64,000 nucleotides of DNA, from the IMG/VR virus record IMGVR_UViG_3300042691_038938. One strand, written 5' to 3'. Shown here piece by piece: positions 49,048-63,842 of this stretch; the stretch's first letter is position 1, and every line of letters begins with the position of its first letter. The DNA is from a virus (taxonomy: Duplodnaviria; Caudoviricetes). The position numbers and the translations under genes were made by a program. The notes beneath the pieces are model-generated. The model did no database searches. It was not told the origin of the DNA and saw only the letters and a list, made by a program, of their open reading frames with translations.

Positions 49048-49131
49048 CTGCTTTTGTTTTTAAGTTTATATAGTAAATATACTACTAAAGAACCCAAATG
49101 TACAATCCTGGCGTGAGTAAATTCGGGAGAC
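49048..49131 (-). promoter_or_regulatory. Repeated early-type promoter element 1
   Basis: GTCTCCCG...AGGATTGTACA-N17-TATATTTAC...TTAAAAACAAAAG. Confidence 0.85.
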
Positions 49132-49171
49132 GCGACCTGCCTGGACTAGCTCCATTACTACGGAGTAAAAC

Positions 49172-49200
49172 AAAAAAGCCAGCCTCTTGCGAAGCTGGCC
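49172..49200 (-). terminator. Rho-independent terminator
   Basis: GCCAGC-N10-GCTGGC plus T6 on -. Confidence 0.75.
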
Positions 49201-49225
49201 GACCCGGAAAAGCAGGAACCTAGGT

Positions 49226-49411
49226 CTAATTACTTATCTGAACTCCAACAGTCTGCCACTGTGTTATGGTGTACTCAAAGCCTTCCTCTTCGGGCATGGC
49301 CATCTTTAATCTCTCTCTGACATCAAGCGCTCTGGCAACCGTAGTTATCGATCTCTTATCAGTGGAGAAGTAATGCTTCCCATCCTTGCTTACGTTTATC
49401 TCGTACCACAT
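49226..49411 (-). CDS. Hypothetical protein
   Basis: 61 aa, coupled to upstream gene. Confidence 0.7.
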   Translation of the reverse strand: MWYEINVSKDGKHYFSTDKRSITTVARALDVRERLKMAMPEEEGFEYTITQWQTVGVQISN

Positions 49412-49416
49412 GTCTC

Positions 49417-49848
49417 CTAAAATTCGATTACTCCTGAGATTACTAGATTGAGTGGAACAGGGTCCTCATCATTGTGAGAGGTCTTCACGAGCCACTCTCC
49501 CTCCTGAGTGAACAGGTATCCATACTCCTCGATGTCTGACTTAAAGAATGAAGAGACTGACTCGTCCTTACGTGGATCAGTGTCGTCCTCACCTCGGTCT
49601 CTGCCGTATGCGACTGTGACTCCCTTCTCCCGCTGGTCATAGTCGAAGCCGTGTGGGCCGGTTGGGTGCACCTTCTTGCCCAGTAGCGATAGGTCTCCTA
49701 GAGCGATGAGGTCCTTCACCTTCTCTGGGTCTTGATAGTGGGTGTGTAGGATGAACCCGTTGTATTCGATGTAACCGTCACTGTGACAGTATACTGAGAG
49801 AACTGAGCCGTCCTCTTGCTCCATTGCGATTCTTGATCTTGTTGCCAT
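49417..49848 (-). CDS. Conserved phage hypothetical protein
   Basis: MATRSRI...SVYCHSDGY. Confidence 0.75.
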   Translation of the reverse strand: MATRSRIAMEQEDGSVLSVYCHSDGYIEYNGFILHTHYQDPEKVKDLIALGDLSLLGKKVHPTGPHGFDYDQREKGVTVAYGRDRGEDDTDPRKDESVSSFFKSDIEEYGYLFTQEGEWLVKTSHNDEDPVPLNLVISGVIEF

Positions 49849-49933
49849 GCTGCTTTTGTTTTTAAGTTTATATAGTAAATATACTAAGATTCTTGTGACT
49901 TGTACAATCCAGTGGACCTAAAAGTCGGGAGAC
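49849..49933 (-). promoter_or_regulatory. Repeated early-type promoter element 2
   Basis: Same consensus; spacer identical to elements 3 and 4. Confidence 0.85.
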
Positions 49934-49941
49934 GGTGCCGC

Positions 49942-50175
49942 CTACTGCGGGAAGAGAAAGTCCTGCACTTCTTTGAGTAGACCCGGATACTCGTCCTCAC
50001 TGAAGGTGTCTCCATACTGGTCAGTCATGAAGGTATCGATGACAGCTTCTTCCTGAGTCAAGATCTCGGTGTAGACAATCGTGATCTCCTCTTCCTCGTC
50101 GTTTAATATGTATTCACGTACGATTACTGGGTTCTTTTCTTCTTGCTTGAGCAATTCAAATCTTGGTGTTTTCAT
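49942..50175 (-). CDS. Acidic hypothetical protein
   Basis: Between two promoter elements. Confidence 0.7.
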   Translation of the reverse strand: MKTPRFELLKQEEKNPVIVREYILNDEEEEITIVYTEILTQEEAVIDTFMTDQYGDTFSEDEYPGLLKEVQDFLFPQ

Positions 50176-50257
50176 CTGCTTTTGTTTTTAAGTTATAAGT
50201 AAATATACTAAGATTCTTGTGACTTGTACAATCCTGCCGTGACAGAAATCAAGAGAC
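50176..50257 (-). promoter_or_regulatory. Repeated early-type promoter element 3
   Basis: Same consensus. Confidence 0.85.
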
Positions 50258-50283
50258 GTTATTCCTCTTCCGTTACATGGTTT

Positions 50284-50499
50284 CTAAATTTCAATAATAT
50301 CAACATCAGTTACTTCAAACGAAAATATATCAAGCTCATCAATCACTTCCTCGTCATATCCGTATTCATCTGCCATCATCTTTTTAACCTCATCTTCGGC
50401 CTGCTCGGACTCTTTGCATTTGATATGAAAGATAACCGGGCTATCTAGCCCAACTGAGTATCCCTCATCTGATACTACTACGCAAAATAATTTCTTCAT
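50284..50499 (-). CDS. Acidic hypothetical protein flanked by the direct repeat
   Basis: 71 aa. Confidence 0.7.
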   Translation of the reverse strand: MKKLFCVVVSDEGYSVGLDSPVIFHIKCKESEQAEDEVKKMMADEYGYDEEVIDELDIFSFEVTDVDIIEI

Positions 50500-50581
50500 G
50501 GTTTCTGCTTTTAAGTTATAGTATAAATATACTAAGATTCTTGTGACTTGTACAATCCTGCCGTGGCAGAAATCAAGAGAC
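50500..50581 (-). promoter_or_regulatory. Repeated early-type promoter element 4
   Basis: Same consensus. Confidence 0.85.
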
Positions 50582-50582
50582 G

Positions 50583-50789
50583 CTATTCCTCTTCCGTTAC
50601 ATGGTGAGCCTCGATCTCGAAAGAGTTGTTCTCTAAAAAAGAGTTGAGTGCGGGCTGCTCTCCCTTAAAGTAGACGATTGCGGATGGGCCTCCTGCGCCA
50701 AGATGAGTCCACTCCAATCCTTCGTACTCTAGCTCGTGTATTACTGAGTCCACCTTTTCTGGGTCTACAAAAATGCTGAATGCTTTCAT
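50583..50789 (-). CDS. Hypothetical protein
   Basis: 68 aa. Confidence 0.7.
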   Translation of the reverse strand: MKAFSIFVDPEKVDSVIHELEYEGLEWTHLGAGGPSAIVYFKGEQPALNSFLENNSFEIEAHHVTEEE

Positions 50790-50868
50790 GGGTTTGATTT
50801 AAGTTATAAGTAAATATACAAAGACTAATTAGTATTGTACACTTCTACGGAGTAAACTTTCGGGAGAC
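50790..50868 (-). promoter_or_regulatory. Repeated early-type promoter element 5
   Basis: Consensus, with CTACGGAGT between the -35 and the GAGAC box. Confidence 0.85.
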
Positions 50869-50872
50869 CTGG

Positions 50873-51142
50873 CTAGAAGGTTGCCTTAGTCTCCATCGCG
50901 AAGACGAGCTCCACGCCCCACGGAAACTTATAGGCTCTGAACCCACCTGTCCCTGTAGACATAGTCTCTTCTGAATTCTGCATTGCGTTGACTAGAAGAA
51001 TCGCCGCAGTTCTTTTTAAATCATCTATCGTCGGCATCTCACCTCTCCATTTCCAATCAACCTGTACCATGTAGTCGTGCACCTTTTGAAAATCGAATCT
51101 ATCGATGATCTGTCCTATCGTCTCTGCGTGTTTCTGTTCCAT
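50873..51142 (-). CDS. Hypothetical protein
   Basis: FDFQKVHDYM...W...STGTGGF. Confidence 0.7.
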   Translation of the reverse strand: MEQKHAETIGQIIDRFDFQKVHDYMVQVDWKWRGEMPTIDDLKRTAAILLVNAMQNSEETMSTGTGGFRAYKFPWGVELVFAMETKATF

Positions 51143-51151
51143 CTTTCCTGC

Positions 51152-51361
51152 TTATTGGTTTTCTAATCGGGTTAACTTCTTGTTTAGGGTCTTTAGCCTG
51201 CCCTTGAGTCTCTTGGTCTCGAGCCTACGTAGGTAGGGACCGTGATTGTAGGTGCTGCCTTCCCATGCCATGGTCCAAACAGTCTTATCGTTCTTTAGGA
51301 ACTCTATCCTTGCGTCGATCTTTTGGATGAGGTCTAATATCTCCTGTCTAGTCATCGCCAC
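51152..51361 (-). CDS. Hypothetical protein
   Basis: Coupled by stop/start overlap. Confidence 0.65.
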   Translation of the reverse strand: MAMTRQEILDLIQKIDARIEFLKNDKTVWTMAWEGSTYNHGPYLRRLETKRLKGRLKTLNKKLTRLENQ

Positions 51362-51603
51362 TACTTTAGAATGAATACTGTCTCTTCCTCGTGGATGCCC
51401 TCTTCTGTGTCCAGTCCAAGTCCTTCCATGATGGGCTCAAACTCTTCCTGATTCTTGACCAGGACCATGAATCCAGGATCGTCGGTAATATCCTCTCCAC
51501 AGTTTAGGAAGCCCAAATAACCTGAGCTATTAGGATTGAGTTGGAAATCGTTCTTTACCTTGAGTAGGAATAGAACACCGGCTTTGAATTCTTCTTTAGT
51601 CAT
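51361..51603 (-). CDS. Hypothetical protein
   Basis: Directly after promoter element. Confidence 0.7.
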   Translation of the reverse strand: MTKEEFKAGVLFLLKVKNDFQLNPNSSGYLGFLNCGEDITDDPGFMVLVKNQEEFEPIMEGLGLDTEEGIHEEETVFILK

Positions 51604-51685
51604 CTGCTTTTGTTTTTAAGTTATAAGTAAATATAATAAAAACTTGGGTATGAGTACAATCCTATGATGGGTAAATTCAGGAGAC
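51604..51685 (-). promoter_or_regulatory. Repeated early-type promoter element 6
   Basis: Same consensus. Confidence 0.85.
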
Positions 51686-51701
51686 TCGGTGCCAAGTCGG
51701 C

Positions 51702-51998
51702 TCAGTAACCCTCTTCTCCAAAAAACGCGGTTGCCGTTATGCTATATGACTTTCCTTCAAGCATAAATGAGATTTCCCAGATATCATCAAAGTGATTCTT
51801 TCTGCCGGTTAGCTCTACCTCTGTTTCCATTAGCTCTACTAATTTCTCAAGGGTGCTAGTTCCATAATCGTCGGCTCCTATACTTTGGGCATGGACTCCA
51901 TCAACTAACATAGTATTCGTTACTTGCCAGTTCTCCATCCAATTCGATCCCATGTACCAATCAAAGAGTCCATCAATCGTTGTTGTTGCGGTATTCAT
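51702..51998 (-). CDS. Hypothetical protein
   Basis: 98 aa. Confidence 0.7.
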   Translation of the reverse strand: MNTATTTIDGLFDWYMGSNWMENWQVTNTMLVDGVHAQSIGADDYGTSTLEKLVELMETEVELTGRKNHFDDIWEISFMLEGKSYSITATAFFGEEGY

Positions 51999-52058
51999 CT
52001 GCTTTTGTTTTTAAGTTATAAGTAAATATAATAAACGCTTGAGCATTTGTACAATCCT
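51999..52058 (-). promoter_or_regulatory. Repeated early-type promoter element 7 (no GAGAC box)
   Basis: -35, -10 and leader conserved. Confidence 0.8.
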
Positions 52059-52067
52059 GTTGAAAGA

Positions 52068-52985
52068 TTATTCGTTTATTTGAAATCCGCTAGCGTACTT
52101 AAGAAATTCCTCAAACTCGATTCCTAGTCTCTCCATTACTAACGTGCTTAGTTTGATGGGTCTCCCTCCATATTGAGTAGATTCACTGGCAGGGTCGACT
52201 ACTCTTATGATAAAAGGGGACAGCTCATCTTCTTGTAAAATCCTAATCAGTCTAGAAGTAGTTGAGCAAAAGGTTGTCCCGAAAAAGAAATGCCATGGAC
52301 GACCATTGCTTTTTAGGAATACCTCTTCTTTGATCTCAAAGACGGACTCCAATAGCTCCTTGACCTGGATCTTTCCATATGGATCCTTTTTCCCGTATTC
52401 CACATCGATCACGTCAATTAGTTCGTCGTCAACACCAAAAGATTCTTTAAGATTAGCGAGTGCATCTTTTCTTACCATGAAGTCCTCATCCACGCATAAC
52501 TTGACTAGAAGATCCTTCGGTGTCATTTCATGTTTAGCCGCTCGGCATCTCTCAACCCAATTAAAAGATTTGGAAAATCTCTCCAATATCTCGAGCCGAG
52601 TGGAGTCAAGAGTGTTTTGGTGACGAAGTATTTCGGATTGTAGATCCGGCTCCTCCTTTGCAAACTTAGAAAGAATTTCAGCTGGACAGAAAGGGGAGCT
52701 CACGTATTTCTTCCTTGTCGCAAGTGACTTCACGTTAGGGTCAAACTTCTCCTCCTTAGTCGAGACCTCGATTGATTCGATCTCATAGGTTCCAATGGAC
52801 ATCGACCGTGAATCTCTTCCGTATGAGTCGATCACGTTACACATGTATTCATGGATCTTTTGATTGGCCACTTTCTCGGCATCCTCTTGGCTTTCTCCAT
52901 GAACCATGAAAGTCTTAGTTGGCATAAAGGACGGGCGTCGTTGTGCGCTCGATGTTCTCTTAAATTGTACGCGATACCTTTTCAT
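52068..52985 (-). CDS. Protein with HEAT/LRV-like repeats
   Basis: CPAEILSKFA, TPKDLLVKLCVDEDFMVR. Confidence 0.6.
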   Translation of the reverse strand: MKRYRVQFKRTSSAQRRPSFMPTKTFMVHGESQEDAEKVANQKIHEYMCNVIDSYGRDSRSMSIGTYEIESIEVSTKEEKFDPNVKSLATRKKYVSSPFCPAEILSKFAKEEPDLQSEILRHQNTLDSTRLEILERFSKSFNWVERCRAAKHEMTPKDLLVKLCVDEDFMVRKDALANLKESFGVDDELIDVIDVEYGKKDPYGKIQVKELLESVFEIKEEVFLKSNGRPWHFFFGTTFCSTTSRLIRILQEDELSPFIIRVVDPASESTQYGGRPIKLSTLVMERLGIEFEEFLKYASGFQINE

Positions 52986-53065
52986 ACTTCTGTTTTTAAG
53001 TTATAAGTAAATATAACCAAGAATCAGGCATTTGTACAATCCTGGCGTGGGTAAAATCGGGAGAC
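52986..53065 (-). promoter_or_regulatory. Repeated early-type promoter element 8
   Basis: Same consensus. Confidence 0.85.
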
Positions 53066-53068
53066 GCT

Positions 53069-54033: not shown

Positions 54034-54195
54034 CTACGGAGTAAAAAGTAAGTAAATCGGCCAGAGAATCAATATCGCCAGCGTCTGTATCGGACCGTTC
54101 ATCTCATATCCCTTGTTACTTAGGTAGAGTAGAGTGGTAAAGCCTGCTGCGGTCCAGAGCAGCAGGCTTAGTATTATGATTATGGTTGTTATCAA
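54034..54195 (-). CDS. Possible 53-aa two-TM peptide (TTG start overlapping the sigma stop)
   Basis: ITTIIIILSLLLWTAAGFTTLLYL...LAILILWPIYLLFTP; its stop lies inside the polar motif. Confidence 0.4.
   Translation of the reverse strand: MITTIIIILSLLLWTAAGFTTLLYLSNKGYEMNGPIQTLAILILWPIYLLFTP
54140..54169 (-). terminator. 11-bp hairpin after the sigma gene
   Basis: AAGCCTGCTGC-N8-GCAGCAGGCTT; short U-tract. Confidence 0.45.
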
Positions 54196-54905
54196 TTGAT
54201 TCGCATTTTTTCTAGCGATGCCTTCACGATCTGGCTGACACGAACGTTTGACATGTCGTAGCGCTCAGCGATCGCATCAGTCGGCATCTCATACTCTCGG
54301 TCTATGCCGAAGTAGTCCATCACGATCAGGCGGTCACGTTCCTTTAGGGAGCTTAAGACCTTCTTTACCTTGAACTTGATGTCGTCGATCTCGATCTCAG
54401 ACTCAGTTTGGGATGGAGAGTGTAGGATGAGGTCGCCTAGAGACGTGCCGCCTTCTTCTCCTACTCGATCGTCGATGTAGGCACGCTTGGGTTCTTCGAC
54501 CTCCTCATGATTCATCTTGGCCTTGTAGATCTCGTATTCCTGGTTGTGAGGCAGTCTCACTATCCGGCCCGTCTTAGCGACTGCTTCGTTAAGTCGTTTA
54601 CGAATCCATAGGCTCGCGTATGAAATGAATCTCTGACCCTCTTTGGGCTTGAAGTTCTTTGCGGCTTCCATCAAGCCGATGTTGCCCTCTTGGATGAGGT
54701 CGTCGATGGGCACTCCTTGACCTATGTGGCGGTTTGCAAGCTTCACCACGAATTTTAGGTTGGCCTGTACGAGCTCGTTAAGTGCCATACGATCTCCCTC
54801 TTGGATTAGTTTTACCAGTTCGATCTCACGATCGTGCGTCACTGGCGTGCTCTTTTGAATAGTACGAAAGTACTTTGGCAAGTTTTCTGAAGTTTCAAAT
54901 CTCAT
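54192..54905 (-). CDS. Sigma70-family factor, Bacteroidota RpoD-like, shortened region 3
   Basis: ANLKFVV, DLIQEGNIGL, RFISYASLWIR, IVRLPHNQ, C-terminal HTH RVSQI. Confidence 0.9.
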   Translation of the reverse strand: MRFETSENLPKYFRTIQKSTPVTHDREIELVKLIQEGDRMALNELVQANLKFVVKLANRHIGQGVPIDDLIQEGNIGLMEAAKNFKPKEGQRFISYASLWIRKRLNEAVAKTGRIVRLPHNQEYEIYKAKMNHEEVEEPKRAYIDDRVGEEGGTSLGDLILHSPSQTESEIEIDDIKFKVKKVLSSLKERDRLIVMDYFGIDREYEMPTDAIAERYDMSNVRVSQIVKASLEKMRIN

Positions 54906-54967
54906 GTTCTTTATGTTTTTAAGTTATATAGTAAATTTAACAAATTACTCTGATTCTGTACAATCCT
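54906..54967 (-). promoter_or_regulatory. Repeated early-type promoter element 9 (no GAGAC box)
   Basis: -35 lies in the last codons of 54945-55154. Confidence 0.75.
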
Positions 54968-55154
54968 GTTCGTTTAATTTTCCGCTTTTTACCAGAGACC
55001 AATACTGCTCTTCCGTGATCCGAACTCCACCGAGTAGATCGAGTTGCACGCAGTCTGAACAGGTCACTGCCTCTGAATTGATGTCCACCTTAGGTACGAT
55101 GTTACCGCATCTCTTACACGCTAACTGCTTAAATGTCTTGCTTAAATTCTTCAT
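54945..55154 (-). CDS. Zn-ribbon protein
   Basis: CKRCG...CSDC. Confidence 0.7.
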   Translation of the reverse strand: MKNLSKTFKQLACKRCGNIVPKVDINSEAVTCSDCVQLDLLGGVRITEEQYWSLVKSGKLNEQDCTESE

Positions 55155-55645: not shown

Positions 55646-55767
55646 ACTTTAGCTCCACAATCACTGCATCTCACTAGCTGTATTCCCGATACGTGTCGTA
55701 CTGCCACATAGGTTCTCTTGTGCTCGCACTTAGGTTTTTCTACCTGCTTTTCTTTTGAATTTTCCAT
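55642..55767 (-). CDS. 41-aa Cys-containing peptide (not in ORF track)
   Basis: MENSKEKQVEKPKCEH...RCSDCGAKV; right after promoter, ATGA overlap downstream. Confidence 0.65.
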   Translation of the reverse strand: MENSKEKQVEKPKCEHKRTYVAVRHVSGIQLVRCSDCGAKV

Positions 55768-55849
55768 TTTGCTTTGTTTTTAAGTTATAAGTAAATATAA
55801 TTATTATTCTGCAATAAGTACAATCCTGGTGCGATAAAAATCGGGAGAC
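55768..55849 (-). promoter_or_regulatory. Repeated early-type promoter element 10
   Basis: Same consensus. Confidence 0.85.
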
Positions 55850-55896: not shown

Positions 55897-56364
55897 TTAT
55901 CCGTGATAAGATTCAATCTTGAACCAGATCTCGTAGCCGTTTGCGATCCTGTCCTGTCGACCGTTTCGGGTCCAGAACCAGTCGTGAATGAACTCGCCCT
56001 TGATCTTCTTAACGTCGATCACGAACGGTGTCTCATCAAGGTATCCCAAGACTACTTCGACTGGCTCCTTAAACTCAAGCACTGCCTCATGACTCCACCT
56101 GTTCTCTCGGATAATCTTTACTCCATCGTAAAACTCGATTTGAGTCTTGTCCTTTTTTCTGGTGAGACGGTTAATCCAGTGGCTTGCTCCCTCCTCATCC
56201 AGTGCATTCGCGTCTCTCGTGTAGGATGCCACGGTTGGATAAGTACCATCATCAGTATCCTGAGATATTTCGAATAACATGCAGTTATTACCAAAGTCCA
56301 TCTTAATTCCTTTAAGCGGGCCGTCTCCATCGAGCAGGCTCCAGATGCTGTGTGTTGTTTTCAT
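55897..56364 (-). CDS. Hypothetical protein
   Basis: 155 aa. Confidence 0.7.
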   Translation of the reverse strand: MKTTHSIWSLLDGDGPLKGIKMDFGNNCMLFEISQDTDDGTYPTVASYTRDANALDEEGASHWINRLTRKKDKTQIEFYDGVKIIRENRWSHEAVLEFKEPVEVVLGYLDETPFVIDVKKIKGEFIHDWFWTRNGRQDRIANGYEIWFKIESYHG

Positions 56365-56447
56365 GCTGCTTTCGTTTTTAAGTTATAGTTAAATATAATC
56401 ATTAAGTCTGAATCTTAACAATCCGGTAGCGAAAACTTTTAAGAGAC
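56365..56447 (-). promoter_or_regulatory. Repeated early-type promoter element 11
   Basis: GTCTC box overlaps the stop of 56439-56828. Confidence 0.8.
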
Positions 56448-56828
56448 ATGTTCCGCCTCTTCCTTCAAGTAGTTATCGAAGTTGACTAATAGGAACTGGC
56501 CGTAGCTTTTAAAGTACTCTTCAACGATTCGTTCTATACGACGGAGAGAACTCGCTCTGACCTTTGACTCGTCTCCTTCGCAGACAAGCACCCACCACCC
56601 GTTACTGCGACCGGCAAAGCTCCAATCAGTAATGAACGGATAGTCACTCTCCATTATCTTCTCGAAACACTGTTCTGAGTGATAGTTAGTATAGAACCCG
56701 TCCTCCCACTCGTATTGTAGGAGTTCCTCATGAGCTTCAGTTAGGGGCAAAGTAGGAAACTTCACGTCGAACTCAATGGTGAAGTCACAGTGAAAGTCTC
56801 TTTTGTGTCTGTTAAATACTGCTTCCAT
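56439..56828 (-). CDS. Hypothetical protein
   Basis: WSFAGRSNGWWV. Confidence 0.7.
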   Translation of the reverse strand: MEAVFNRHKRDFHCDFTIEFDVKFPTLPLTEAHEELLQYEWEDGFYTNYHSEQCFEKIMESDYPFITDWSFAGRSNGWWVLVCEGDESKVRASSLRRIERIVEEYFKSYGQFLLVNFDNYLKEEAEHVS

Positions 56829-56844: not shown

Positions 56845-57090
56845 TTATGAAAATCTTAAAAATTCTACTGATCCTGTATGGATGAACGCAATCGATCCGT
56901 CTCCGAACTGGATGCCGATTGTGTGTTCGTCGGCTGAACAGACGGTCACGTCGATCTCGTCTCCTTTCGCGAAGGCCTCCTCGACCGGTTTGTGTAGCTC
57001 GATATCCTCGTTCTCAAAGACCTCAATGAGAGTGTCTCCTAAGAACATGAATACTACGTCGTCCCCTTCTTCAAAGTCTTGTGTTTTCAT
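56845..57090 (-). CDS. Acidic hypothetical protein
   Basis: 81 aa. Confidence 0.7.
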   Translation of the reverse strand: MKTQDFEEGDDVVFMFLGDTLIEVFENEDIELHKPVEEAFAKGDEIDVTVCSADEHTIGIQFGDGSIAFIHTGSVEFLRFS

Positions 57091-57172
57091 GCTTTTAAGT
57101 TTTTAAGTTATAGTTAAATATAATACTAATCTTTGAGTCGTGAAAATTGGGCGGCGACAAAAGTAGGGAGAC
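57091..57172 (-). promoter_or_regulatory. Repeated early-type promoter element 12
   Basis: Same consensus, divergent -35. Confidence 0.8.
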
Positions 57173-57189: not shown

Positions 57190-57534
57190 TCAGACTTGAT
57201 CTAGGACGAGGTCGATGAATTTTTGAAAGTCGTCTTTCTCTAGGTCATCAAAGGAGACGGGAGCCTCGATCAAGGCTTGCATCATTAGACGAGCTTCTTC
57301 CTCAGTATTCGCAGCGACTGGGAAAGGCGTAGCATCCCAAAAGAACTGAATGAGCCCTTCCTCATAGATGCTGATTATCGGCGGACACGCTTCGTCAGGA
57401 AAATCGATAATGGGTTCGTAACAAGTAAAGTGGCCAAACTCCTCGTTCTCACATCCCTCATCCTCCCTAGAATCAAAGGTTTGAACGAGCTTGATTCCAA
57501 ATAATTCTTCTACTTTTTCTTTTACTTCTTGCAT
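57190..57534 (-). CDS. Acidic hypothetical protein
   Basis: 114 aa. Confidence 0.7.
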   Translation of the reverse strand: MQEVKEKVEELFGIKLVQTFDSREDEGCENEEFGHFTCYEPIIDFPDEACPPIISIYEEGLIQFFWDATPFPVAANTEEEARLMMQALIEAPVSFDDLEKDDFQKFIDLVLDQV

Positions 57535-57614
57535 CTTTTTGTTTTTAAGTTATAGTTAAATATAACAACTATTCTCCAATCTATAAAATCCTGGTTTGGG
57601 AAAAGTCGGGAGAC
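57535..57614 (-). promoter_or_regulatory. Repeated early-type promoter element 13
   Basis: Same consensus. Confidence 0.85.
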
Positions 57615-57713: not shown

Positions 57714-57965
57714 CTATTTAAGTCCCTTTGCCCCGTTGTATATCTTCTCTGCCTTTGTATAATCGTACTCAGCAGCTATTAGTGCTCCTATCTCCTGGGA
57801 GAAATTGGTCCTAAAGAATTTTAGATTCTCCGGAGTGTCGTTCACGTAGGGCACCATCTCGTGCAGGACGGGTAACCTCTCCTTTAGACTCAGTCTCTTG
57901 AGGTACTGTCTTACCGTGTCCTGTGCCCCGACCTTGATCAGGTTTATCGCTTTGTCCACTCTCAT
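57714..57965 (-). CDS. Hypothetical protein
   Basis: ATGA overlap. Confidence 0.65.
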   Translation of the reverse strand: MRVDKAINLIKVGAQDTVRQYLKRLSLKERLPVLHEMVPYVNDTPENLKFFRTNFSQEIGALIAAEYDYTKAEKIYNGAKGLK

Positions 57966-58276
57966 GCTACGTATCCTTGGTTATAGACTAAGTATACATA
58001 AAATCGGATGGCGTTTAAATTGATTGAGTCGGCTCTTCCCACTGTCTCCATCAAGTTGTTATCGACTATCGCCTGCACAAAGCTTCCGCCTGGAAATCCC
58101 ACTCCCCACTTGGTGCTCAGTATGGAGACGCCGATCCTAGTGACGTGTTCTCTACTTTCGTTGAACGCTATCGCCTGTCCAAATGCGAGGTCGTGTCCCC
58201 ACGAGTAATACTCATCGATTCGCTTGGAAACGACCTCTGCTATTCTCTCCTCTTGTCCTTCAGTGTATGCTGCCAT
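57962..58276 (-). CDS. Conserved phage hypothetical protein
   Basis: PGGSFVQAIVDNNL...VGRADSIN. Confidence 0.7.
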   Translation of the reverse strand: MAAYTEGQEERIAEVVSKRIDEYYSWGHDLAFGQAIAFNESREHVTRIGVSILSTKWGVGFPGGSFVQAIVDNNLMETVGRADSINLNAIRFYVYLVYNQGYVA

Positions 58277-58335
58277 CTTTTTTGTTTTAAGTTATATAGT
58301 AAATATACTAAATTCTCTAGTGCTTGTACAATCCT
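58277..58335 (-). promoter_or_regulatory. Repeated early-type promoter element 14 (no GAGAC box)
   Basis: -35, -10 and leader conserved. Confidence 0.8.
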
Positions 58336-58696
58336 AGCGTAAACTCTTTAAGAAATCTTTGTCGACTCTGTGGAGTTCTATCTCTGCAATCTGGAGACCG
58401 TCAAACCCCATTCCTATTAGAGCCTGCTTAAATGGTACCCATACGTTCTCTTTGTGTGGTACGCCGCTTGCATATCCATGATAATCTCTCGTGCCCCATA
58501 CGGCAACGACTGCCTTGGCTCTTCGTACCAATTTAACGGGGTCTTTGATGAGCTTAGACTGCTTCTCAGCTAGACTCTGGATAGGCGAGCCATTACCATA
58601 AAACCAGTTTCGCATGCCGTGTTTGTAGAAGTCCATCTCCAGTGCACGGTGATAGTCCTTTGTTTGAGGTTCAATTGATGTTACCTGTAAATTCAT
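58334..58696 (-). CDS. Hypothetical protein
   Basis: Start moved to MNLQVTS after the promoter leader. Confidence 0.7.
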   Translation of the reverse strand: MNLQVTSIEPQTKDYHRALEMDFYKHGMRNWFYGNGSPIQSLAEKQSKLIKDPVKLVRRAKAVVAVWGTRDYHGYASGVPHKENVWVPFKQALIGMGFDGLQIAEIELHRVDKDFLKSLR

Positions 58697-58777
58697 TGTG
58701 CTTGTTTTTAAGTTATAAGTAAATGTAATAATAATAACTGATAATGTACAATTAGTCGGCCCTAAAAGCCGAGAGAC
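58697..58777 (-). promoter_or_regulatory. Repeated early-type promoter element 15
   Basis: Same consensus. Confidence 0.8.
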
Positions 58778-58829: not shown

Positions 58830-59321
58830 TTATAATGGCGGACCTCCGAACCACCATCTACCTCGTTGATATGTTTCACAAGGACCAAGTCGATCTCGAA
58901 TCTCTTGAGTACATTTTGGATTGTTTAGCACGTAATAGCGAATCGCATCGTTCTTCTCATGGCTTAGGATCTCAAGAAGGTTCTCTGGGATCTCCTCATT
59001 TTTTGCGAGCATACGTTTGACGTCGGGCCGATCGTTAATGAGATTGGCTAGGACGTCCGCTGGAGTCGACGGATTTCCTGCGACTCTTGATCGAATCACA
59101 CTGCTTCGATCCTTCGAAAGCTTTCGTAAGACGTCGCTTGGACACGTTCGGTTTTTGGCAACGATATCCTTGAAAGTGGTCGAGCTCAATGACTCCAATG
59201 CCATTGGGTCGGATGTCGTCTCCGCGATGGTGCTTAACCGTACACCCTTGTCGATCGAGGTCAATGTACGATCTCTTTTGATTTTTTTAATTTGGTCTAA
59301 GACGCTCATGTTTTCTTGCAT
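58830..59321 (-). CDS. Leucine-rich-variant (LRV/HEAT-like) repeat protein
   Basis: VAKNRTCPSDVL, VAGNPSTPADVL, LAKNEEIPENLL, VLNNPKC. Confidence 0.75.
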   Translation of the reverse strand: MQENMSVLDQIKKIKRDRTLTSIDKGVRLSTIAETTSDPMALESLSSTTFKDIVAKNRTCPSDVLRKLSKDRSSVIRSRVAGNPSTPADVLANLINDRPDVKRMLAKNEEIPENLLEILSHEKNDAIRYYVLNNPKCTQEIRDRLGPCETYQRGRWWFGGPPL

Positions 59322-59404
59322 AGCTTTTAAGCTTTTAAGTTATGTATAAATATAACAATAATAACGAGTAATGTACAATCCTGGCCGAAAGACTTTTGGG
59401 AGAC
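59322..59404 (-). promoter_or_regulatory. Repeated early-type promoter element 16
   Basis: Same consensus. Confidence 0.85.
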
Positions 59405-59412: not shown

Positions 59413-59943
59413 CTATTTCACAAAGAGCGTGCAATTGGTGTAAGGAAAGGAATGTTCTCCAAGCTTTACCTCAAGCTCCTCGAGGTCGAACCCCATCTCC
59501 TCACAAACAGAAGATATTGTCTCAGGACTAGCTTCATTTGGAACCTGGAACCCGCTCACCTTAAGAAACTTGAGAGCTGCATCTAGCCTAGCTTGCTCCT
59601 CATTAAGGGACTCAACGGTCGTCACCATCGATGCGGTGCCTAGGGGCAGGCTAGAGTAGCGGTTTGCCAGTATCGCAACTGAGAAAGTCTCCGTCTCATC
59701 AGGAACGGTAGGAACTTCAGCTCCCTCAAGGAAATTGAGAAGATCACCTACTTTCTCGACGTCCTCTAATTCTTCAGGAATCTTTACTCCAAACTTTTTC
59801 TCGAGCTTTATGATTACCTCGACGATGTCCAATGCATCCATTCTAAGATCGTCCATTAGGCTCGTGTTCTCGTCGATCTCAGCGCACACTGCATACTCCT
59901 CAACGTGAAGTCTAATTATCTCAAATACTTTTTCTTTTAACAT
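59413..59943 (-). CDS. Acyl-carrier-protein-like domain (Ser to Ala) fused to an unknown domain
   Basis: EKVFEII...DDLRMDALDIVEVIIKLEKKFGVKIPEE...KVGDL. Confidence 0.8.
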   Translation of the reverse strand: MLKEKVFEIIRLHVEEYAVCAEIDENTSLMDDLRMDALDIVEVIIKLEKKFGVKIPEELEDVEKVGDLLNFLEGAEVPTVPDETETFSVAILANRYSSLPLGTASMVTTVESLNEEQARLDAALKFLKVSGFQVPNEASPETISSVCEEMGFDLEELEVKLGEHSFPYTNCTLFVK

Positions 59944-60024
59944 GGTGGTAGGTTTTAAGTTATAAGTAAATATAACTACGATCCCTGAATAAGTACAATC
60001 CTGTGATGGGTAAATTCAGGAGAC
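59944..60024 (-). promoter_or_regulatory. Repeated early-type promoter element 17
   Basis: Same consensus. Confidence 0.85.
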
Positions 60025-60091: not shown

Positions 60092-60115
60092 CAGTCTCTA
60101 ACCTAAAACAACTTC

Positions 60116-60310
60116 TTAATATTCGCCTTTGTCGTATTCCTTTTTCAAGAGTTCAACGATCATTTCTCTCTCCTCCTCTAACATTCTGTTGTTGGCGAAG
60201 GAAACTAGGATGTCGGCAACGGTTAGCCCATGTTCTCCTGAGTCTACCATTCCTACTAGGATTTCTCCAAGGACGTCGTTTCGTGTTGATTCGTTTGCTG
60301 ATTTTTCCAT
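60116..60310 (-). CDS. Hypothetical protein
   Basis: 64 aa ending EY-stop. Confidence 0.65.
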   Translation of the reverse strand: MEKSANESTRNDVLGEILVGMVDSGEHGLTVADILVSFANNRMLEEEREMIVELLKKEYDKGEY

Positions 60311-60318
60311 GGGTTCTA

Positions 60319-60708
60319 TTATTTAAAGAGTGCAATTATCTTATTCTCAAGCTCACGATCGAACGCGATATCATTATTACAATCGTCATCGAACTCGTGA
60401 CTAACACATCCCGCTAAGAGGTCGAGAGCGTTTGATTCCATCTCCACTCCTTCCTCGTCCTCCCACTCGAAGTTGAAGAAGTCTCTAGAATCTCCATGCA
60501 CCACCACATCGATGGTCCCATCCTCGCGTACCCTCCATGCAGGATAGTGACTATTAAGAACGAACTCTAGTGCTTCAGCCTCAGCATCACTCTCGCACTG
60601 CTCTTCCCAATTGGCAATGAAGCTATTGACATGATTGGTGATGGCAACGTACAGTGCACTGTCGATCTTCTCTACCTCATTGTCGTTAAGAAACCTTTGA
60701 TTTGTCAT
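60319..60708 (-). CDS. Acidic hypothetical protein
   Basis: 129 aa. Confidence 0.7.
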   Translation of the reverse strand: MTNQRFLNDNEVEKIDSALYVAITNHVNSFIANWEEQCESDAEAEALEFVLNSHYPAWRVREDGTIDVVVHGDSRDFFNFEWEDEEGVEMESNALDLLAGCVSHEFDDDCNNDIAFDRELENKIIALFK

Positions 60709-60790
60709 AGTGTTTAAGTTTTAAGTTATAAGTAAATATAACAAATGCTTTCAAATAAGTACAATCCTGTGCTCAGCAAATTTGGGAGAC
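60709..60790 (-). promoter_or_regulatory. Repeated early-type promoter element 18
   Basis: Same consensus. Confidence 0.85.
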
Positions 60791-60822
60791 ACTCAGGCTT
60801 GAAGTTGAAAGGAGTTGAAACG

Positions 60823-60845
60823 AAAAAGCGGAGATTTCTCTCCGC
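60823..60845 (-). terminator. Rho-independent terminator
   Basis: GCGGAGA-GAAA-TCTCCGC plus T5 on -. Confidence 0.75.
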
Positions 60846-60850
60846 CTCGA

Positions 60851-61375
60851 CTATCCTATCTTGCTCGCTATCTGCCTCACCTTGTTGACGTAATCGGGAT
60901 CCCCTGCGTAATTCTTTTTGAGGTACTGCAAGTATTCTTCTCTCGTCTTACACTTTTTCGTGTAGGCAGCCTGGAAGAGCGCGTAGTCCATGACGCTATG
61001 CTGCCACGACTCGTACTTTGCGTGACCCTTGTATTCTCCTATCGCGGTCGTGGGTCGCTGCCTTGCCACCTTCATGCCGAAGAGGTTATTACCGTTCCTA
61101 AAGATGTTAGAGGTGAATCGCCCAGTCTCGACTATTGCTTGAGCGTAGACGATGTCATAGTACTTGACTCTCATCTCCTTCAGGGTCTCTAGAAGCTTTT
61201 CCTTGCTGAAGCTCGGATCGACTGGTTTTACGGGTTCTACTCGAGCGACTCTCTCTAACTTGAGACCCGATACTTCAGGTTTCTTTAAGAACGACAGCGA
61301 GATGATGAGTCCAAAGCAGACTCCGGTAAATCCATAAAGCAATCTTTTAAACGGTTCCATGTTTACTGTTTCCAT
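60851..61375 (-). CDS. Membrane-anchored GH73-like glucosaminidase
   Basis: TM LLYGFTGVCFGLIISLSFL; AQAIVETG, NNLFGMK, YAGDPDY; start moved to METVNM. Confidence 0.8.
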   Translation of the reverse strand: METVNMEPFKRLLYGFTGVCFGLIISLSFLKKPEVSGLKLERVARVEPVKPVDPSFSKEKLLETLKEMRVKYYDIVYAQAIVETGRFTSNIFRNGNNLFGMKVARQRPTTAIGEYKGHAKYESWQHSVMDYALFQAAYTKKCKTREEYLQYLKKNYAGDPDYVNKVRQIASKIG

Positions 61376-61456
61376 CTTTTTTGTTTTTAAGTTATGGTTA
61401 AATATAACCATTATCTTTGGATAAGTACAATCCTAGTTGCAGAAAAACTGGGAGAC
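61376..61456 (-). promoter_or_regulatory. Repeated early-type promoter element 19
   Basis: Same consensus. Confidence 0.85.
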
Positions 61457-61565
61457 TCGTCTGCTACAGGAATTCGGCTTCCCTACTTTGAGCTCGGGGC
61501 GCCATGGCACATGGGCTCTCTCGGAGTCTCAGCGGGCAGGGGCTCGGCTCTACGGAGTAAACGAC

Positions 61566-61588
61566 AAAGGGCCAGCTCTCGCTGACCC
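61566..61588 (-). terminator. Repeated terminator module B
   Basis: GGGTCAGC-GAGA-GCTGGCCC-TTTG. Confidence 0.75.
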
Positions 61589-61613
61589 CTCGTCTCTAAC
61601 CTAAAACAACTTC

Positions 61614-62006
61614 TTAATATTCCTCTTCCTCGTCGTAGTCCTCTTCTTCTCCTTTCGTATCAATCTCTATCTCACCGATCCGGATTATTCCGTCTTCCTC
61701 GCTAGTTTCAAAGTCCTCCTCAAAATCAAAGGTGTTTCCTAACGTAATTTCCAAGTGTCCCTCTGTTATATCATCGACTAGCACACAACCGATCGATCCC
61801 GAATCTACTGGATACCCGTTACCGTGCTGATCGGGATACACTCCGTCTCCGTAAGCGGTCCCATAGATCGCGAACTTGGTCCCATCCTTAAGCTCAAACT
61901 CTCCGTCCAAACAGTTGTGGTCCACGATGATGAGGTCACACACCTCAGTCCAACGGTCTCCCAAAACATAGCATAGGTCTCCAACATAATACTTGCCTGC
62001 TTTCAT
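61614..62006 (-). CDS. Conserved phage hypothetical protein
   Basis: YYVGDLCYV...GTAYGDG...VDSGSIG. Confidence 0.75.
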   Translation of the reverse strand: MKAGKYYVGDLCYVLGDRWTEVCDLIIVDHNCLDGEFELKDGTKFAIYGTAYGDGVYPDQHGNGYPVDSGSIGCVLVDDITEGHLEITLGNTFDFEEDFETSEEDGIIRIGEIEIDTKGEEEDYDEEEEY

Positions 62007-62089
62007 ACTCTTTTAGTTTTTAAGTTATAGTTAAATATAATCATTTCTTTCTAATCTTGACAATCCTGCATCGGATAAAGTCGGGAGAC
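62007..62089 (-). promoter_or_regulatory. Repeated early-type promoter element 20
   Basis: Same consensus. Confidence 0.85.
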
Positions 62090-62122
62090 CTGCTCCCATT
62101 CTTCTACTACGGAGTAAACGAC

Positions 62123-62145
62123 AAAGGGTCAGCTCCCGCTGACCC
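62123..62145 (-). terminator. Repeated terminator module C
   Basis: Identical to module A. Confidence 0.75.
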
Positions 62146-62151
62146 CAGTCT

Positions 62152-62256
62152 CTAACTCAATATGAATCTGATTATGTTTCCGATAATGATGAACGATCCC
62201 AATAGGATCAGGATCGCCCACATGATTTGCTCGAATAACTCGCTTCCTCTTCTCAT
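62152..62256 (-). CDS. 34-aa membrane peptide (not in ORF track)
   Basis: MRRGSELFEQIMWAILILLGSFIIIGNIIRFILS. Confidence 0.5.
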   Translation of the reverse strand: MRRGSELFEQIMWAILILLGSFIIIGNIIRFILS

Positions 62257-62260
62257 GACT

Positions 62261-62515
62261 CTATAGGTTTGAGAGGAAGATTTCCTGGTTCACTGAAACG
62301 CTTCTCCACGACTGTTTCTCAAGATCGAAGAAGGTGACCTGCCGAGGAGAGCTCTCTCGCACTCCCTTAGGGTGGTGGTCGCTAGGAATGGTGGTAAGGT
62401 TGGTCGTACCTACCGCGGTACGCAAGGTCCCGTCTAGTTTCTTGAATGCGAACTGCACTGCTCCGCTTCTCAATCTCTGACGCAATACTTCTGGTGAAAT
62501 CGGCTCTAATACCAT
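62261..62515 (-). CDS. SH3-like beta-barrel (WYL_2/DUF2693-like) protein
   Basis: FAFKKLDGTLRTAVGT...FFDLEKQSWRSV. Confidence 0.75.
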   Translation of the reverse strand: MVLEPISPEVLRQRLRSGAVQFAFKKLDGTLRTAVGTTNLTTIPSDHHPKGVRESSPRQVTFFDLEKQSWRSVSVNQEIFLSNL

Positions 62516-62608
62516 GTCTTTTATGTTTTTAAGTTATAGTTAAATATAACCATTATTCGTTAAAAGTAAAAATCCTGTGTAAAAATTTTTCGCCTAAAAT
62601 CAGGAGAC
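62516..62608 (-). promoter_or_regulatory. Repeated early-type promoter element 21 (box shifted by 10 nt)
   Basis: GAGAC at 61 nt rather than 51; box encodes V-S-stop of the upstream gene. Confidence 0.8.
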
Positions 62609-62887
62609 CCGGCCGTGCTTGGCTTTAACGTAAGCCCTCGCGTTTTGAGCAGTAATGTGAGCGTCATTGCATACTCGAAACTCAATACCTTCTTGGCTGG
62701 TGTACACCCACTCGGTCGTGGGATCGAACTCTGGCCCGGTTGAGTGGGAAAAGTTAAATACCATTGAGTTACCAGTCTTGGCTGAGACTACCTCGTACTG
62801 GGTATCAAACTGGACATCCTTTTCTGAAACTTTGATAATCCCTGTTTCAACTGAAAATCTTACCTCTTTAAGGTTTACTCTCTTCAT
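62600..62887 (-). CDS. Hypothetical protein
   Basis: Start moved to MKRVNLKE. Confidence 0.7.
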   Translation of the reverse strand: MKRVNLKEVRFSVETGIIKVSEKDVQFDTQYEVVSAKTGNSMVFNFSHSTGPEFDPTTEWVYTSQEGIEFRVCNDAHITAQNARAYVKAKHGRVS

Positions 62888-62968
62888 TCTTCTTGTTTTT
62901 AAGTTATGTATAAATATAACCATTATACTTGAATAAGTACAATCTTCTTTACGATAAAGTCGGGAGAC
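62888..62968 (-). promoter_or_regulatory. Repeated early-type promoter element 22
   Basis: Same consensus. Confidence 0.85.
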
Positions 62969-62996
62969 ACGCCCGATCGAGCCAAGATTACCAAAC

Positions 62997-63020
62997 AAAA
63001 AAAGCCAGCGTAAGCTGGCT
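62997..63020 (-). terminator. Rho-independent terminator
   Basis: GCCAGC-TTAC-GCTGGC plus T7 on -. Confidence 0.75.
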
Positions 63021-63040
63021 CTCCATTAAACTGTGACTGA

Positions 63041-63301
63041 TTATGACTTGACTATCTTATAAGTGATACACTCATTATCCTCGTCGAACTCATGATTCTC
63101 ATCTGAGAGGGTGTACCCCATCTTTTCCAAAGCATCTAAGACCGGTTCGTTAACACAATCGTTAGCGTTCTCAGCAGCGGCTTCTAAGTCTAGCCTCCAT
63201 CTCTTACGACTGTCCCACTCACTCGACTCATAATAGACTACCATCTTAGTAAAATCATCAGTGATCGTTCCGGTGCAATTAAAACCGATTTCCATTTCCA
63301 T
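63041..63301 (-). CDS. Acidic hypothetical protein
   Basis: Start moved to MEMEIGF. Confidence 0.7.
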   Translation of the reverse strand: MEMEIGFNCTGTITDDFTKMVVYYESSEWDSRKRWRLDLEAAAENANDCVNEPVLDALEKMGYTLSDENHEFDEDNECITYKIVKS

Positions 63302-63382
63302 GTTGTTTGTTTTTAAGTTATAGTTAAATATAACCATTATTCTTCAGTCTTGACAATATTGTCTTGATTAAAATCAGGAGAC
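63302..63382 (-). promoter_or_regulatory. Repeated early-type promoter element 23
   Basis: Box and -35 lie inside the end of 63337-63513. Confidence 0.8.
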
Positions 63383-63513
63383 AGGAACATGGCTAGCCTA
63401 GCGGGAATCACCACCGTCATGTTACATGAGTCACAACATCGACCCGAGTTTACGGGCTCAGCATTGTTTGACCGATTCTCTTGAATTGACTCTTTACAGA
63501 TTGAACATTTCAT
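63337..63513 (-). CDS. Small Zn-finger protein
   Basis: CSIC...NNAEPV...CCDSCN; start moved to MKCSIC. Confidence 0.7.
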   Translation of the reverse strand: MKCSICKESIQENRSNNAEPVNSGRCCDSCNMTVVIPARLAMFLSPDFNQDNIVKTEE

Positions 63514-63529
63514 CTCTTTTGTTTTTAGG

Positions 63530-63760
63530 TTAAAGTAAATTCCAAATATCCTGTGTCGCGTCGTAGACAAAGATGTCTCCGGCATGTCCGTCCTTGAACA
63601 CTAGTGAGGTTCCCTTCTTCTCTATCACGTAGCGAATGCCTAGGTCCTCCTTGATGTCTCTCTTGGCAGAGGCGATTGAGATTCTGGATAATTCCGCCCA
63701 CATGTCGATTAGAGAATCGTGAGCGCTTGAGTGCTCCTTCTTAAGATCAGTTAGATTCAT
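63530..63760 (-). CDS. Hypothetical protein
   Basis: 76 aa directly after promoter. Confidence 0.7.
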   Translation of the reverse strand: MNLTDLKKEHSSAHDSLIDMWAELSRISIASAKRDIKEDLGIRYVIEKKGTSLVFKDGHAGDIFVYDATQDIWNLL

Positions 63761-63842
63761 GTCTTTAAGTTTTTAAGTTATAAGTAAATATAACAATAAT
63801 AATCTTTACTTTAAAATCCTGGCCTAATAAAAATTGGGAGAC
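63761..63842 (-). promoter_or_regulatory. Repeated early-type promoter element 24
   Basis: Same consensus. Confidence 0.85.

Follow-up and report, generated by a model that had tools for sequence, protein, structure and literature searches.

A GTCTC box in helical register with an array of phage promoters: candidate binding site of a sequence-specific factor

The window analyzed here is a 64,000-nucleotide stretch of the virus record IMGVR_UViG_3300042691_038938 (IMG/VR; Duplodnaviria; Caudoviricetes), and the element under study is a short box, GTCTC, located upstream of the -33 and -7 elements of promoters on its minus strand. Anchored on a conserved leader, 24 minus-strand promoter cassettes were found between 49.0 and 63.9 kb. 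The distance from the G of GTCTC to the first T of the -7 block (TATATTTA) was 50 nucleotides (nt) in 20 of the 24 cassettes and 60 nt in two (first T of the -7 block, T1, at 62548 and 54939), while the last two (T1 at 52030 and 58307) had no box. Comparison with related phages, in which the box was displaced by whole helical turns, supports a box that is under selection, fixed in orientation and tied to one face of the helix. With a probability that we place slightly above even, the box would be a stereospecific upstream site for a predicted sequence-specific factor, probably phage-encoded, with a T-tract beside it that resembles a docking site for the C-terminal domain carried by the alpha subunit of RNA polymerase (alpha-CTD).

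Anatomy of the cassettes and distance of the box

The cassettes were ~85-95 bp long and consisted, in order, of the box with its T-tract, a -33 block (GGATTGTAC), the -7 block (TATATTTA) and a conserved leader without a Shine-Dalgarno sequence, the ATG being located 20-30 nt downstream of the -7 block. The full layout reads cg-n-GTCTCY-nGAyTTTt, 8 free nt, cAGGATTGTAc, ~13 free nt, TTATATTTA, CTTATAACTTAAAAac and the ATG. Information content was concentrated in three high blocks (box/T-tract, -33 and -7) and was zero upstream of the box, where conservation began abruptly at 2-3 nt from it. Among the 20 standard cassettes, pairwise identity was 0.70 for the box/T-tract, 0.73 for the -33 block and 0.85 for the -7 block, and fell to 0.28 in the sequence preceding the box, 0.33 within the 8-nt gap and 0.37 in the spacer; despite this divergence, the free segments contained no indels. 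The initial annotation, a model's reading of the sequence, had described everything between box and core as freely variable, which held for the ~8-nt and ~13-nt segments and not for the conserved (N)GA(Y)TTT(T) directly 3' of the box or the conserved -33 block cAGGATTGTAc.

When the window was scanned with the pattern AAATAT-N(45-65)-GAGAC, 21 matches were obtained against 1.5 expected. Twenty of them were on the plus strand; the span was 57 nt (51 nt from T to C) in 19 of these and 67 nt in the remaining one (62542-62608). The 58727 cassette escaped this pattern because its -7 block is TACATTTA, and its box was still found at the standard distance. A distance of 51 nt in 20 of 21 boxed elements and of 61 nt in one, as first reported, was therefore reproduced (19 matches plus the cassette at 58727, and 62542-62608). 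Although the 21 elements had been counted correctly, the number of boxed cassettes rises to 22, with a second 60-type at 54939 that had been overlooked because its -7 block is TAAATTTA. The leader alone, without the rest of the cassette, was found at 63532 and 56847. The cassettes and the sigma gene behind one of them are listed below (coordinates, strand, feature; ORF, open reading frame).

49045..49131, minus: cassette 1, 50-type; box 49127-49131, T1 49081, ATG 49047 (ORF 48622-49047)
49846..49933, minus: cassette 2, 50-type; box 49929-49933, T1 49883, ATG 49848
50173..50257, minus: cassette 3, 50-type; box 50253-50257 (GTCTCT), T1 50207, ATG 50175
50497..50581, minus: cassette 4, 50-type; box 50577-50581, T1 50531, ATG 50499; spacer a near-duplicate of those of cassettes 2 and 3
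50787..50868, minus: cassette 5, 50-type; box 50864-50868, T1 50818, ATG 50789; ACTCCGTAG between box and -33
51601..51685, minus: cassette 6, 50-type; box 51681-51685, T1 51635, ATG 51603; box at 49-50 in orthologous promoters of relatives
51996..52059, minus: cassette 7, no box; full -33/-7 core, T1 52030, ATG 51998
52983..53065, minus: cassette 8, 50-type; box 53061-53065, T1 53015, ATG 52985 (ORF of 305 amino acids)
54903..54999, minus: cassette 9, 60-type; box 54995-54999 within ORF 54945-55154, -7 block TAAATTTA, T1 54939, ATG 54905 (sigma gene)
54192..54905, minus: sigma-70-family gene, 237 amino acids, regions 1.2, 2 and 4; behind cassette 9
55765..55849, minus: cassette 10, 50-type; box 55845-55849, T1 55799, ATG 55767
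56362..56447, minus: cassette 11, 50-type; box 56443-56447, encoding V-S before the stop of ORF 56439-56828; T1 56397, ATG 56364
57088..57172, minus: cassette 12, 50-type; box 57168-57172, T1 57122, ATG 57090
57532..57614, minus: cassette 13, 50-type; box 57610-57614, T1 57564, ATG 57534
58274..58336, minus: cassette 14, no box; overlaps the 3' end of the upstream gene; T1 58307, ATG 58276 (operon of 104 + 83 amino acids)
58694..58777, minus: cassette 15, 50-type; box 58773-58777 (GTCTCT), -7 block TACATTTA, T1 58727, ATG 58696
59319..59404, minus: cassette 16, 50-type; box 59400-59404, T1 59354, ATG 59321
59941..60024, minus: cassette 17, 50-type; box 60020-60024, T1 59974, ATG 59943
60706..60790, minus: cassette 18, 50-type; box 60786-60790, T1 60740, ATG 60708
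61373..61456, minus: cassette 19, 50-type; box 61452-61456, T1 61406, ATG 61375 (ORF with glucosaminidase domain)
62004..62089, minus: cassette 20, 50-type; box 62085-62089, T1 62039, ATG 62006
62513..62608, minus: cassette 21, 60-type; box 62604-62608, encoding the last two residues, V-S, of the ORF that ends at 62600; extra AAAAATTTTT module between box and -33 block; T1 62548, ATG 62515 (WYL_2 protein)
62885..62968, minus: cassette 22, 50-type; box 62964-62968, T1 62918, ATG 62887
63299..63382, minus: cassette 23, 50-type; box 63378-63382 within ORF 63337-63585 (FLSPD); T1 63332, ATG 63301
63758..63842, minus: cassette 24, 50-type; box 63838-63842, T1 63792, ATG 63760

Five of the boxes overlapped upstream ORFs and fixed their codons; one of these ORFs, 63765-63962, may not be real. 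The earlier observation that the box is retained where it has to encode the end of an upstream gene held for the HVS-stop at 56439, the RVS-stop at 62600 and FLSPD in 63337-63585, and it applied equally to the box inside 54945-55154. An extended form of the box, GTCTCYNRNYTTT, occurred 13 times in the window against 0.74 expected, with 11 copies within cassettes and two outside the array without a promoter behind them. A G/C hairpin followed by a T-run was present upstream of several cassettes (e.g., 63792, 62039, 59974, 57564, 55799 and 49081), 20-45 nt from the box, and was absent where the box lay in coding sequence. Two readings that connect the box with such structures were rejected. As the 3' arm of a hairpin or terminator, the box gave a paired fraction of 0.495 versus 0.484 with shuffled upstream sequence, and an upstream GAGAC was found in only 2% of the cassettes; a tie to terminators was discarded because the hairpins lay 20-45 nt upstream and only at some cassettes.

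Spacing classes and box types in related phages

Relatives were collected by an exact-pattern scan for the -7 box and leader (TATATTTANNNATAACTTAAAA), which yielded 52 IMG/VR loci and at least 119 metagenome loci, and cassettes of at least 80% identity were merged into 267 non-window clusters among the matches listed. Among these same listed matches, GTCTC started at 49-51 nt in 50 clusters, at 59-61 nt in 28, at 70-71 nt in three and at 40-41 nt in six, and CGCTC started at 49-50 nt in 10 and at 59-60 nt in 23. Taking both boxes at 35-75 nt upstream, 120 of the 124 were within 1 nt of 40, 50, 60 or 70 nt, compared with an expectation of 29%. No such distance peaks were observed in the relatives' clusters for the reverse complement, GAGAC, showing that the orientation of the box is fixed. 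Because the distance from -33 to -7 was also invariant in the relatives, the spacing does not tell to which of the two core elements the box is registered. As a second overlapping promoter's -35 the box was rejected, given that no consistent -10-like hexamer was found 16-18 nt downstream in the 40, 50 and 60 classes.

Promoters of the same family, grouped by the protein they drive, switched among the 40, 50, 60 and 70 classes between phages. In one family the box stood at 50 (8 cases), 60 (3), 61 (1) or 40 (1), and in another at 50 (5), 49 (1), 59 (3) or 61 (1); in the promoter of the sigma gene it was always at 59-60 or 71. A box half a turn out of register was seen in the promoters of no protein family. 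The helical phase-lock proposed in the initial annotation is supported by the in-phase boxes of the relatives, by orthologues that switch by whole turns and by flanks that diverged without indels. It might still be argued that the spacing was merely inherited from one ancestral cassette with too little time for change, as could be read from the identical spacer of cassettes 2, 3 and 4, which look recently duplicated. However, the free segments are near-random (0.28-0.37) and yet indel-free, distant lineages with another box keep the register, and orthologous promoters are shifted by whole turns only. Simple inheritance is excluded by the whole-turn class switching in orthologues together with the saturated flanks, and we leave it a next to negligible probability.

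A T-tract accompanied the box in every class and was located 9-13 nt downstream of the first base of the box. It merged into the -33 block in the 40-type, which had no separate A-tract module although its box was still in phase; the 50-type contained ~8 free nt, and the 60-type an added AAAAAGTTTC-like module. In the CGCTC lineages, A-tracts were found about -50 and about -40 from the -7 box. Zero to three phased A/T modules of ~10 bp, stacked and capped by the G/C-rich box, therefore make up the spacer.

The type of box was specific to the contig: GTCTCY was found in the window and in many freshwater contigs, CGCTCY in others and TSGNCCY variants in a third group, while the core remained constant across these lineages. 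In a fourth group, GAGGTAAAATAA took the place of the G/C box and was located 35, 45 or 47 nt from the -7 element, so that a 10-nt step was seen again, though with n=12; the GAGGTAAAATAA loci L056, L077, L080, L104, L109, L163 and L167 belong to a more distant lineage. An alternative -33 module, AAACGCATTACC, was combined with the same box, -7 and leader in the IMG/VR contigs 3300043568_002650, 3300044846_005100 and 3300011114_001049 (loci L001, L037 and L043, respectively), with the box at 51 nt. This module was absent from the window. By analogy with the Mot box that replaces the -35 element in T4, the AAACGCATTACC cassettes may represent a second promoter subclass.

To compare with hosts, the motif GTCTCY-N44-TAHHTTTR was counted in 121 genomes of Flavobacteriaceae, one candidate host family, and was about as frequent as its reversed control. 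In the genomes sampled, this argues against the box being a general feature of host promoters.

Promoter class and the predicted reader of the box

The window is part of a large T4-like phage, with a T4-type portal (PF07230, E 8e-60), a split family-B DNA polymerase, a helicase and a Toprim protein. Megablast of the window returned no relatives among isolated phages. The portal matched those of huge uncultured phages (LR7565xx) and of Prevotella Lak phages at only 31-38% identity, and for the portal and sigma genes together the identity to these phages was only 28-38%. Near-identical DNA was found in DNA runs from lake, freshwater and other ("fungus") metagenomes, whereas no RNA run contained the window sequence, the sole possible one (contigs) reaching 5% of the sampled words. 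A Shine-Dalgarno-like 4-mer preceded only 6 of the 71 long ORFs of the window, and the 30 nt upstream of their start codons were A-rich and G-poor. The same A-rich pattern without Shine-Dalgarno sequences has been described for Bacteroidota (PMC6847099), and the host is on this basis probably a member of the Bacteroidota. The array itself lies among ~39 small minus-strand ORFs (48.6-64 kb), most of them without a known family. No description of this promoter element, or of the leader motif in a phage context, was found in a literature search.

The -7 element of Flavobacterium johnsoniae reads T-12 A-11 H H T-8 T-7 T-6 G-5 and is accompanied by a weaker -33 TTG (PMC6847099). TATATTTA matched seven of the eight -7 positions, including T-12, A-11, T-8, T-7 and T-6, and the TTG of GGATTGTAC was located 21 nt upstream of it. 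The name "-10 box" used at first is better replaced by "-7 element" (TAHHTTT-A), and we infer that host RNA polymerase with sigma-A fires the cassette promoters. Since the first T of the -7 block is then read as -12, the box would span about -62 to -57, or about -72 to -67 in the 60-type, relative to a transcription start predicted 5-7 nt downstream of TATATTTA; read in this way as a Bacteroidota -33/-7 promoter (PMC6847099), the cassette agrees with the position originally assigned to the box. The cassettes share with the Bacteroidota sigma-A promoters TA at -12/-11, TTT at -8 to -6, the -33 TTG, A/T-rich spacer motifs and the A-rich leader without Shine-Dalgarno sequence, and differ from them in having A instead of G-5, a near-invariant segment from -4 to +11 (CTTATAACTTAAAA) and the upstream box, which was absent from the sampled host genomes (PMC6847099).

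Late-type boxes, (G/T)ATAAATA, occurred 30 times in the window against 5.3 expected, 27 of them in 1-47.4 kb. They were located almost always just upstream of ORF starts, on either strand, and were mutually exclusive with the early cassettes; the three matches within the array were the reverse strand of TATATTTATA cassette variants. On this evidence, the cassettes would constitute a separate, pre-late promoter class. Immediate-early timing, which the initial annotation had considered, was not established from the sequence.

The whole-turn quantization with a tolerance of 1 nt, the fixed orientation and the T-tract that travels with the box are features expected of a protein that has to contact RNA polymerase from one fixed side of the DNA. 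In the mechanism that we propose, a sequence-specific protein would bind the box, probably as a monomer, given that the site is asymmetric and occurs in a single orientation. The T-tract would be the docking site of alpha-CTD next to this reader, so that reader site and alpha-CTD subsite would form one unit of class I architecture (activator site, then UP-like subsite), and the ~10-bp phased A/T modules between this unit and the -33 block would hold everything in register. The reader is more likely to be encoded by the phage than by the host, since the box changes from lineage to lineage against a constant core, and since its geometry showed no enrichment in the sampled host genomes. The same differences between lineages and the lack of enrichment in the Flavobacteriaceae genomes weaken the earlier suggestion of a host protein. 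What remains of the activator or polymerase-associated factor proposed at the outset is a selected, oriented and face-bound site; a role in activation was not established, because later shut-off is an equally possible effect that needs the same geometry and is not separable from activation by sequence.

A role opposite to activation was accordingly weighed, in which the box binds a negative or insulating factor. Such a factor could be a phage protein of the early or middle phase that retains the polymerase at the promoter or switches early transcription off, or a roadblock that insulates each cassette against read-through. The core looks strong on its own, with complete -33 and -7 elements and two box-less cassettes that have the same core; the early genes of the array, including the sigma factor, could reprogram transcription; late-type KATAAATA boxes are absent from the array; and the stereospecific geometry would be identical to that of activation. 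The phi29 protein p4, for instance, represses promoter A2c by stereospecific over-stabilization of the polymerase. However, a pure roadblock needs no helical register with the -7 element, the loss of the host G-5 would suit a promoter that needs help, and the sequence alone gives a negative role no distinction from activation. Overall, we regard a negative role as fairly unlikely.

It is also conceivable, though in our judgment unlikely, that RNA polymerase reads the box directly, as the distal end of a phased UP-like or curved region contacted by the alpha-CTDs or by wrapping; as a variant, an injected enzyme might act on the polymerase beforehand, in the way that Alt of T4 modifies alpha. 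In agreement with this, the space between box and -33 is filled with phased A/T-tract modules, UP elements also need the polymerase face and tolerate displacement by whole turns (PMC4132738), and T4 early promoters are conserved at additional positions upstream and are responsive to Alt, which is injected (PMC2988021). A classical transcription factor was found neither in the window nor in five related records. By contrast, the box is G/C-rich and sequence-specific, unlike the A/T minor-groove subsites of UP elements, it varies by phage lineage while the core does not, its geometry is not enriched in the Flavobacteriaceae genomes, and Bacteroidota promoters with the core 22-mer have no box.

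For the predicted phage-encoded reader, candidate proteins were searched with Pfam (30 early ORFs and 10 tagged or neighboring ORFs, the tag being a capsid-targeting-like sequence of virion proteins) and PHROGs (10 conserved ORFs). The matches comprised the sigma factor, WYL_2, glucosaminidase, PP-binding, LRV, a Zn protease and a nucleotidyltransferase, and nothing else. The 237-amino-acid sigma-70-type protein was the sole DNA-binding family among the 30 early ORFs. Its family has more than 1000 metagenomic homologues of ~238 amino acids, and each of the five related phage records contained two or three sigma-family genes, which suggests a multi-sigma temporal cascade in these phages. No HTH_3 or AraC-type domain was matched in the five related records; MotA_activ was not matched there either, a result that is uninformative because the MotA control genomes were unmatched too.

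When GTCTC and CGCTC lineages were compared, only sigma and a protein designated P0003 diverged sharply among the conserved early proteins: identity dropped from 59-89% to 31-40% across box types for sigma and from ~68% to 42% for P0003, while the others were at 55-79%. P0002 (104 amino acids) and P0003 (83 amino acids) are encoded at 57717-58276 (minus) behind cassette 14, whose promoter was box-less in all relatives and was the only one to be so in every lineage. These two proteins were chosen as candidates for this reason, and because P0003 diverges with the box type as sigma does. Their AlphaFold models showed all-helical domains with a pLDDT of 94 and had no significant match among solved structures (PDB), which neither supports nor excludes a role as the reader.

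The reader might instead be delivered with the DNA, as one of the ~26 virion proteins with the capsid-targeting-like tag or as another packaged factor, a possibility that we consider quite improbable. Given the T4 precedent of an injected modifier of alpha (PMC2988021), the connection to tagged virion cargo raised in the initial annotation is a reasonable idea, though not an established one. No DNA-binding domain was found in the tagged virion ORFs, whose Pfam matches were the Zn protease and the nucleotidyltransferase. If a virion-delivered reader did exist, each lineage would supply an activator specific for its immediate-early promoters, which would evolve together with the GTCTCY, CGCTCY or TSGNCCY box. 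After injection by a T4-like phage into a Bacteroidota host, this protein would recruit the host's RNA polymerase in a promoter-specific manner. We know of no described example of an injected recruiter of this sort.

Several points weigh against the proposal of a phage-encoded, sequence-specific reader. No factor was found among the early ORFs, the sigma factor being the only DNA-binding match to Pfam or PHROGs. Where and when transcription starts, and by which polymerase, are all deduced. The -5 position is A in 24 of 24 cassettes, while host promoters have a near-invariant G-5. The ~10-bp modules could be phase-constrained themselves, making part of the quantization of the box a by-product, and the comparison with Flavobacteriaceae spans only one candidate host family.

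The cassettes amount to a natural mutagenesis series, in which over 100 independent promoters combine a common core with a small box, lineage-specific in sequence, 4, 5, 6 or 7 turns from the -7 element, so that the question of the reader is directly testable. A single cassette is a compact and probably strong module of promoter and leader for Bacteroidota genetics and, if the reader is phage-encoded, pairs of box and reader would be orthogonal regulatory parts. To our knowledge, very little is known about transcription activation in Bacteroidota or about its takeover by their large phages.

Comparison with known promoter systems and further motifs

In function, the box would resemble a class I activator site. 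Class I sites of MarA and SoxS are asymmetric and fixed in orientation, as is the box described here. Class I CRP sites function at -61.5, -71.5, -82.5 and -92.5, and many CRP promoters have a UP-like sequence just downstream of the CRP site where alpha-CTD docks (PMC4132738). The cassettes likewise have a specific site upstream of the -35 region, on the polymerase face, displaced in whole-turn steps and followed by UP-like A/T sequence (PMC4132738). The comparative evidence places the box in such a register, whereas its absolute positions depend on the predicted transcription start. Unlike a CRP site, which is a 22-bp palindrome, the box is a 6-bp core in a ~14-bp unit, and the host phylum and sigma factor are different; it serves a whole class of phage promoters rather than scattered host operons, and no activator is known for it.

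T4 early promoters ("uber" UP/-35/TGn/-10) also contain conserved information upstream of -35 beyond the needs of host promoters, and the injected Alt modifies alpha (PMC2988021). The upstream signal of T4 is, however, based on A/T-tracts without a discrete G/C box, and Alt is an enzyme and not a DNA-binding reader; in the window, no Alt-like ADP-ribosyltransferase was identified. UP elements are A/T-rich, are located between about -40 and -60 and are read in the minor groove by alpha-CTD. The box itself (GTCTCY, CGCTCY) is G/C-rich and does not qualify as a UP element, while the adjacent T-tract and the inserted A-tracts do fit a UP-like sequence. The cassettes also differ from MotA/AsiA middle promoters of T4, in that the -33 block is present and the box is at about -60 and not at -30.

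The closest likeness in arrangement was to the PeSL cassettes of T4-like myoviruses, which are likewise tandem composite units in a hyperplastic region of small ORFs (PMC2839356; PMC4122927). Their order of terminator hairpin, A/T-rich region, early promoter for the host primary sigma, start signal and ATG is resembled here, in a T4-type phage with small variable ORFs, by a primary-sigma-like early promoter, a non-Shine-Dalgarno start signal and an ATG. The present cassettes differ by their Bacteroidota-type -33/-7 core and A-rich leader without Shine-Dalgarno sequence, by a hairpin that is upstream of only some cassettes and at a variable distance, and by the distal G/C-rich, lineage-specific box in helical register, which the PeSL description consulted does not include. 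The box would be a stereospecific upstream element inside a PeSL-like cassette, in a phage-host group where such regulation is uncharted.

As a further alternative, the box could be the boundary or crossover site of a mobile cassette (PeSL-type homologous exchange, or a site-specific recombinase or nickase site), its phase-lock being a by-product of the 10-bp A-tracts. Conservation does start abruptly 2-3 nt upstream of the box, the array lies in the small variable ORFs of a T4-like phage, where PeSL cassettes mediate shuffling (PMC4122927), and cassettes 2-4 look newly duplicated. Moreover, the gene families behind the cassettes are patchily shared among related contigs, and the gene content around the cassettes differs between them. 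A crossover site, however, needs neither a 1-nt register over 40, 50, 60 and 70 nt nor its own T-tract at a fixed offset; the 40-type is in phase without a separate A-tract module; where the box lies in coding sequence it is retained even though this fixes two codons; and no recombinase turned up in the family scans of the array ORFs. We therefore judge such an origin of the register highly improbable.

Beyond the box, the segment from about -4 to +11 (CTTATAACTTAAAA) was the most conserved part of the cassettes, e.g., at 49047-49081 and 62515-62548 (minus). It was common to phage contigs from lakes, sediments and the Tara ocean samples, the relatives having been selected with that pattern. 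A phage regulator of early mRNAs, or a nuclease that acts on them, could recognize this segment, or the segment could enhance translation. The 22-mer core TATATTTATTAATAACTTAAAA was conserved in the rpsL leader (MPTIQQL...) of several Bacteroidales genomes (L172, L174, L176 and L178, among others; Bacteroidales, Paludibacteraceae) and occurred singly, without the box, in many Bacteroidota genomes; the phage leader may thus imitate a highly expressed host leader.

Another motif, ACTCCGTAG(TA), was present in 16 copies against 0.3 expected, all on the minus strand between 42563 and 63879. ACTCCGTAG was always on the transcribed strand, and in the array it was usually located after the terminator and before the box. 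At 42571, 43162 and 44270, it directly preceded late-type (G/T)ATAAATA boxes, and it was also present in related contigs of several box types.

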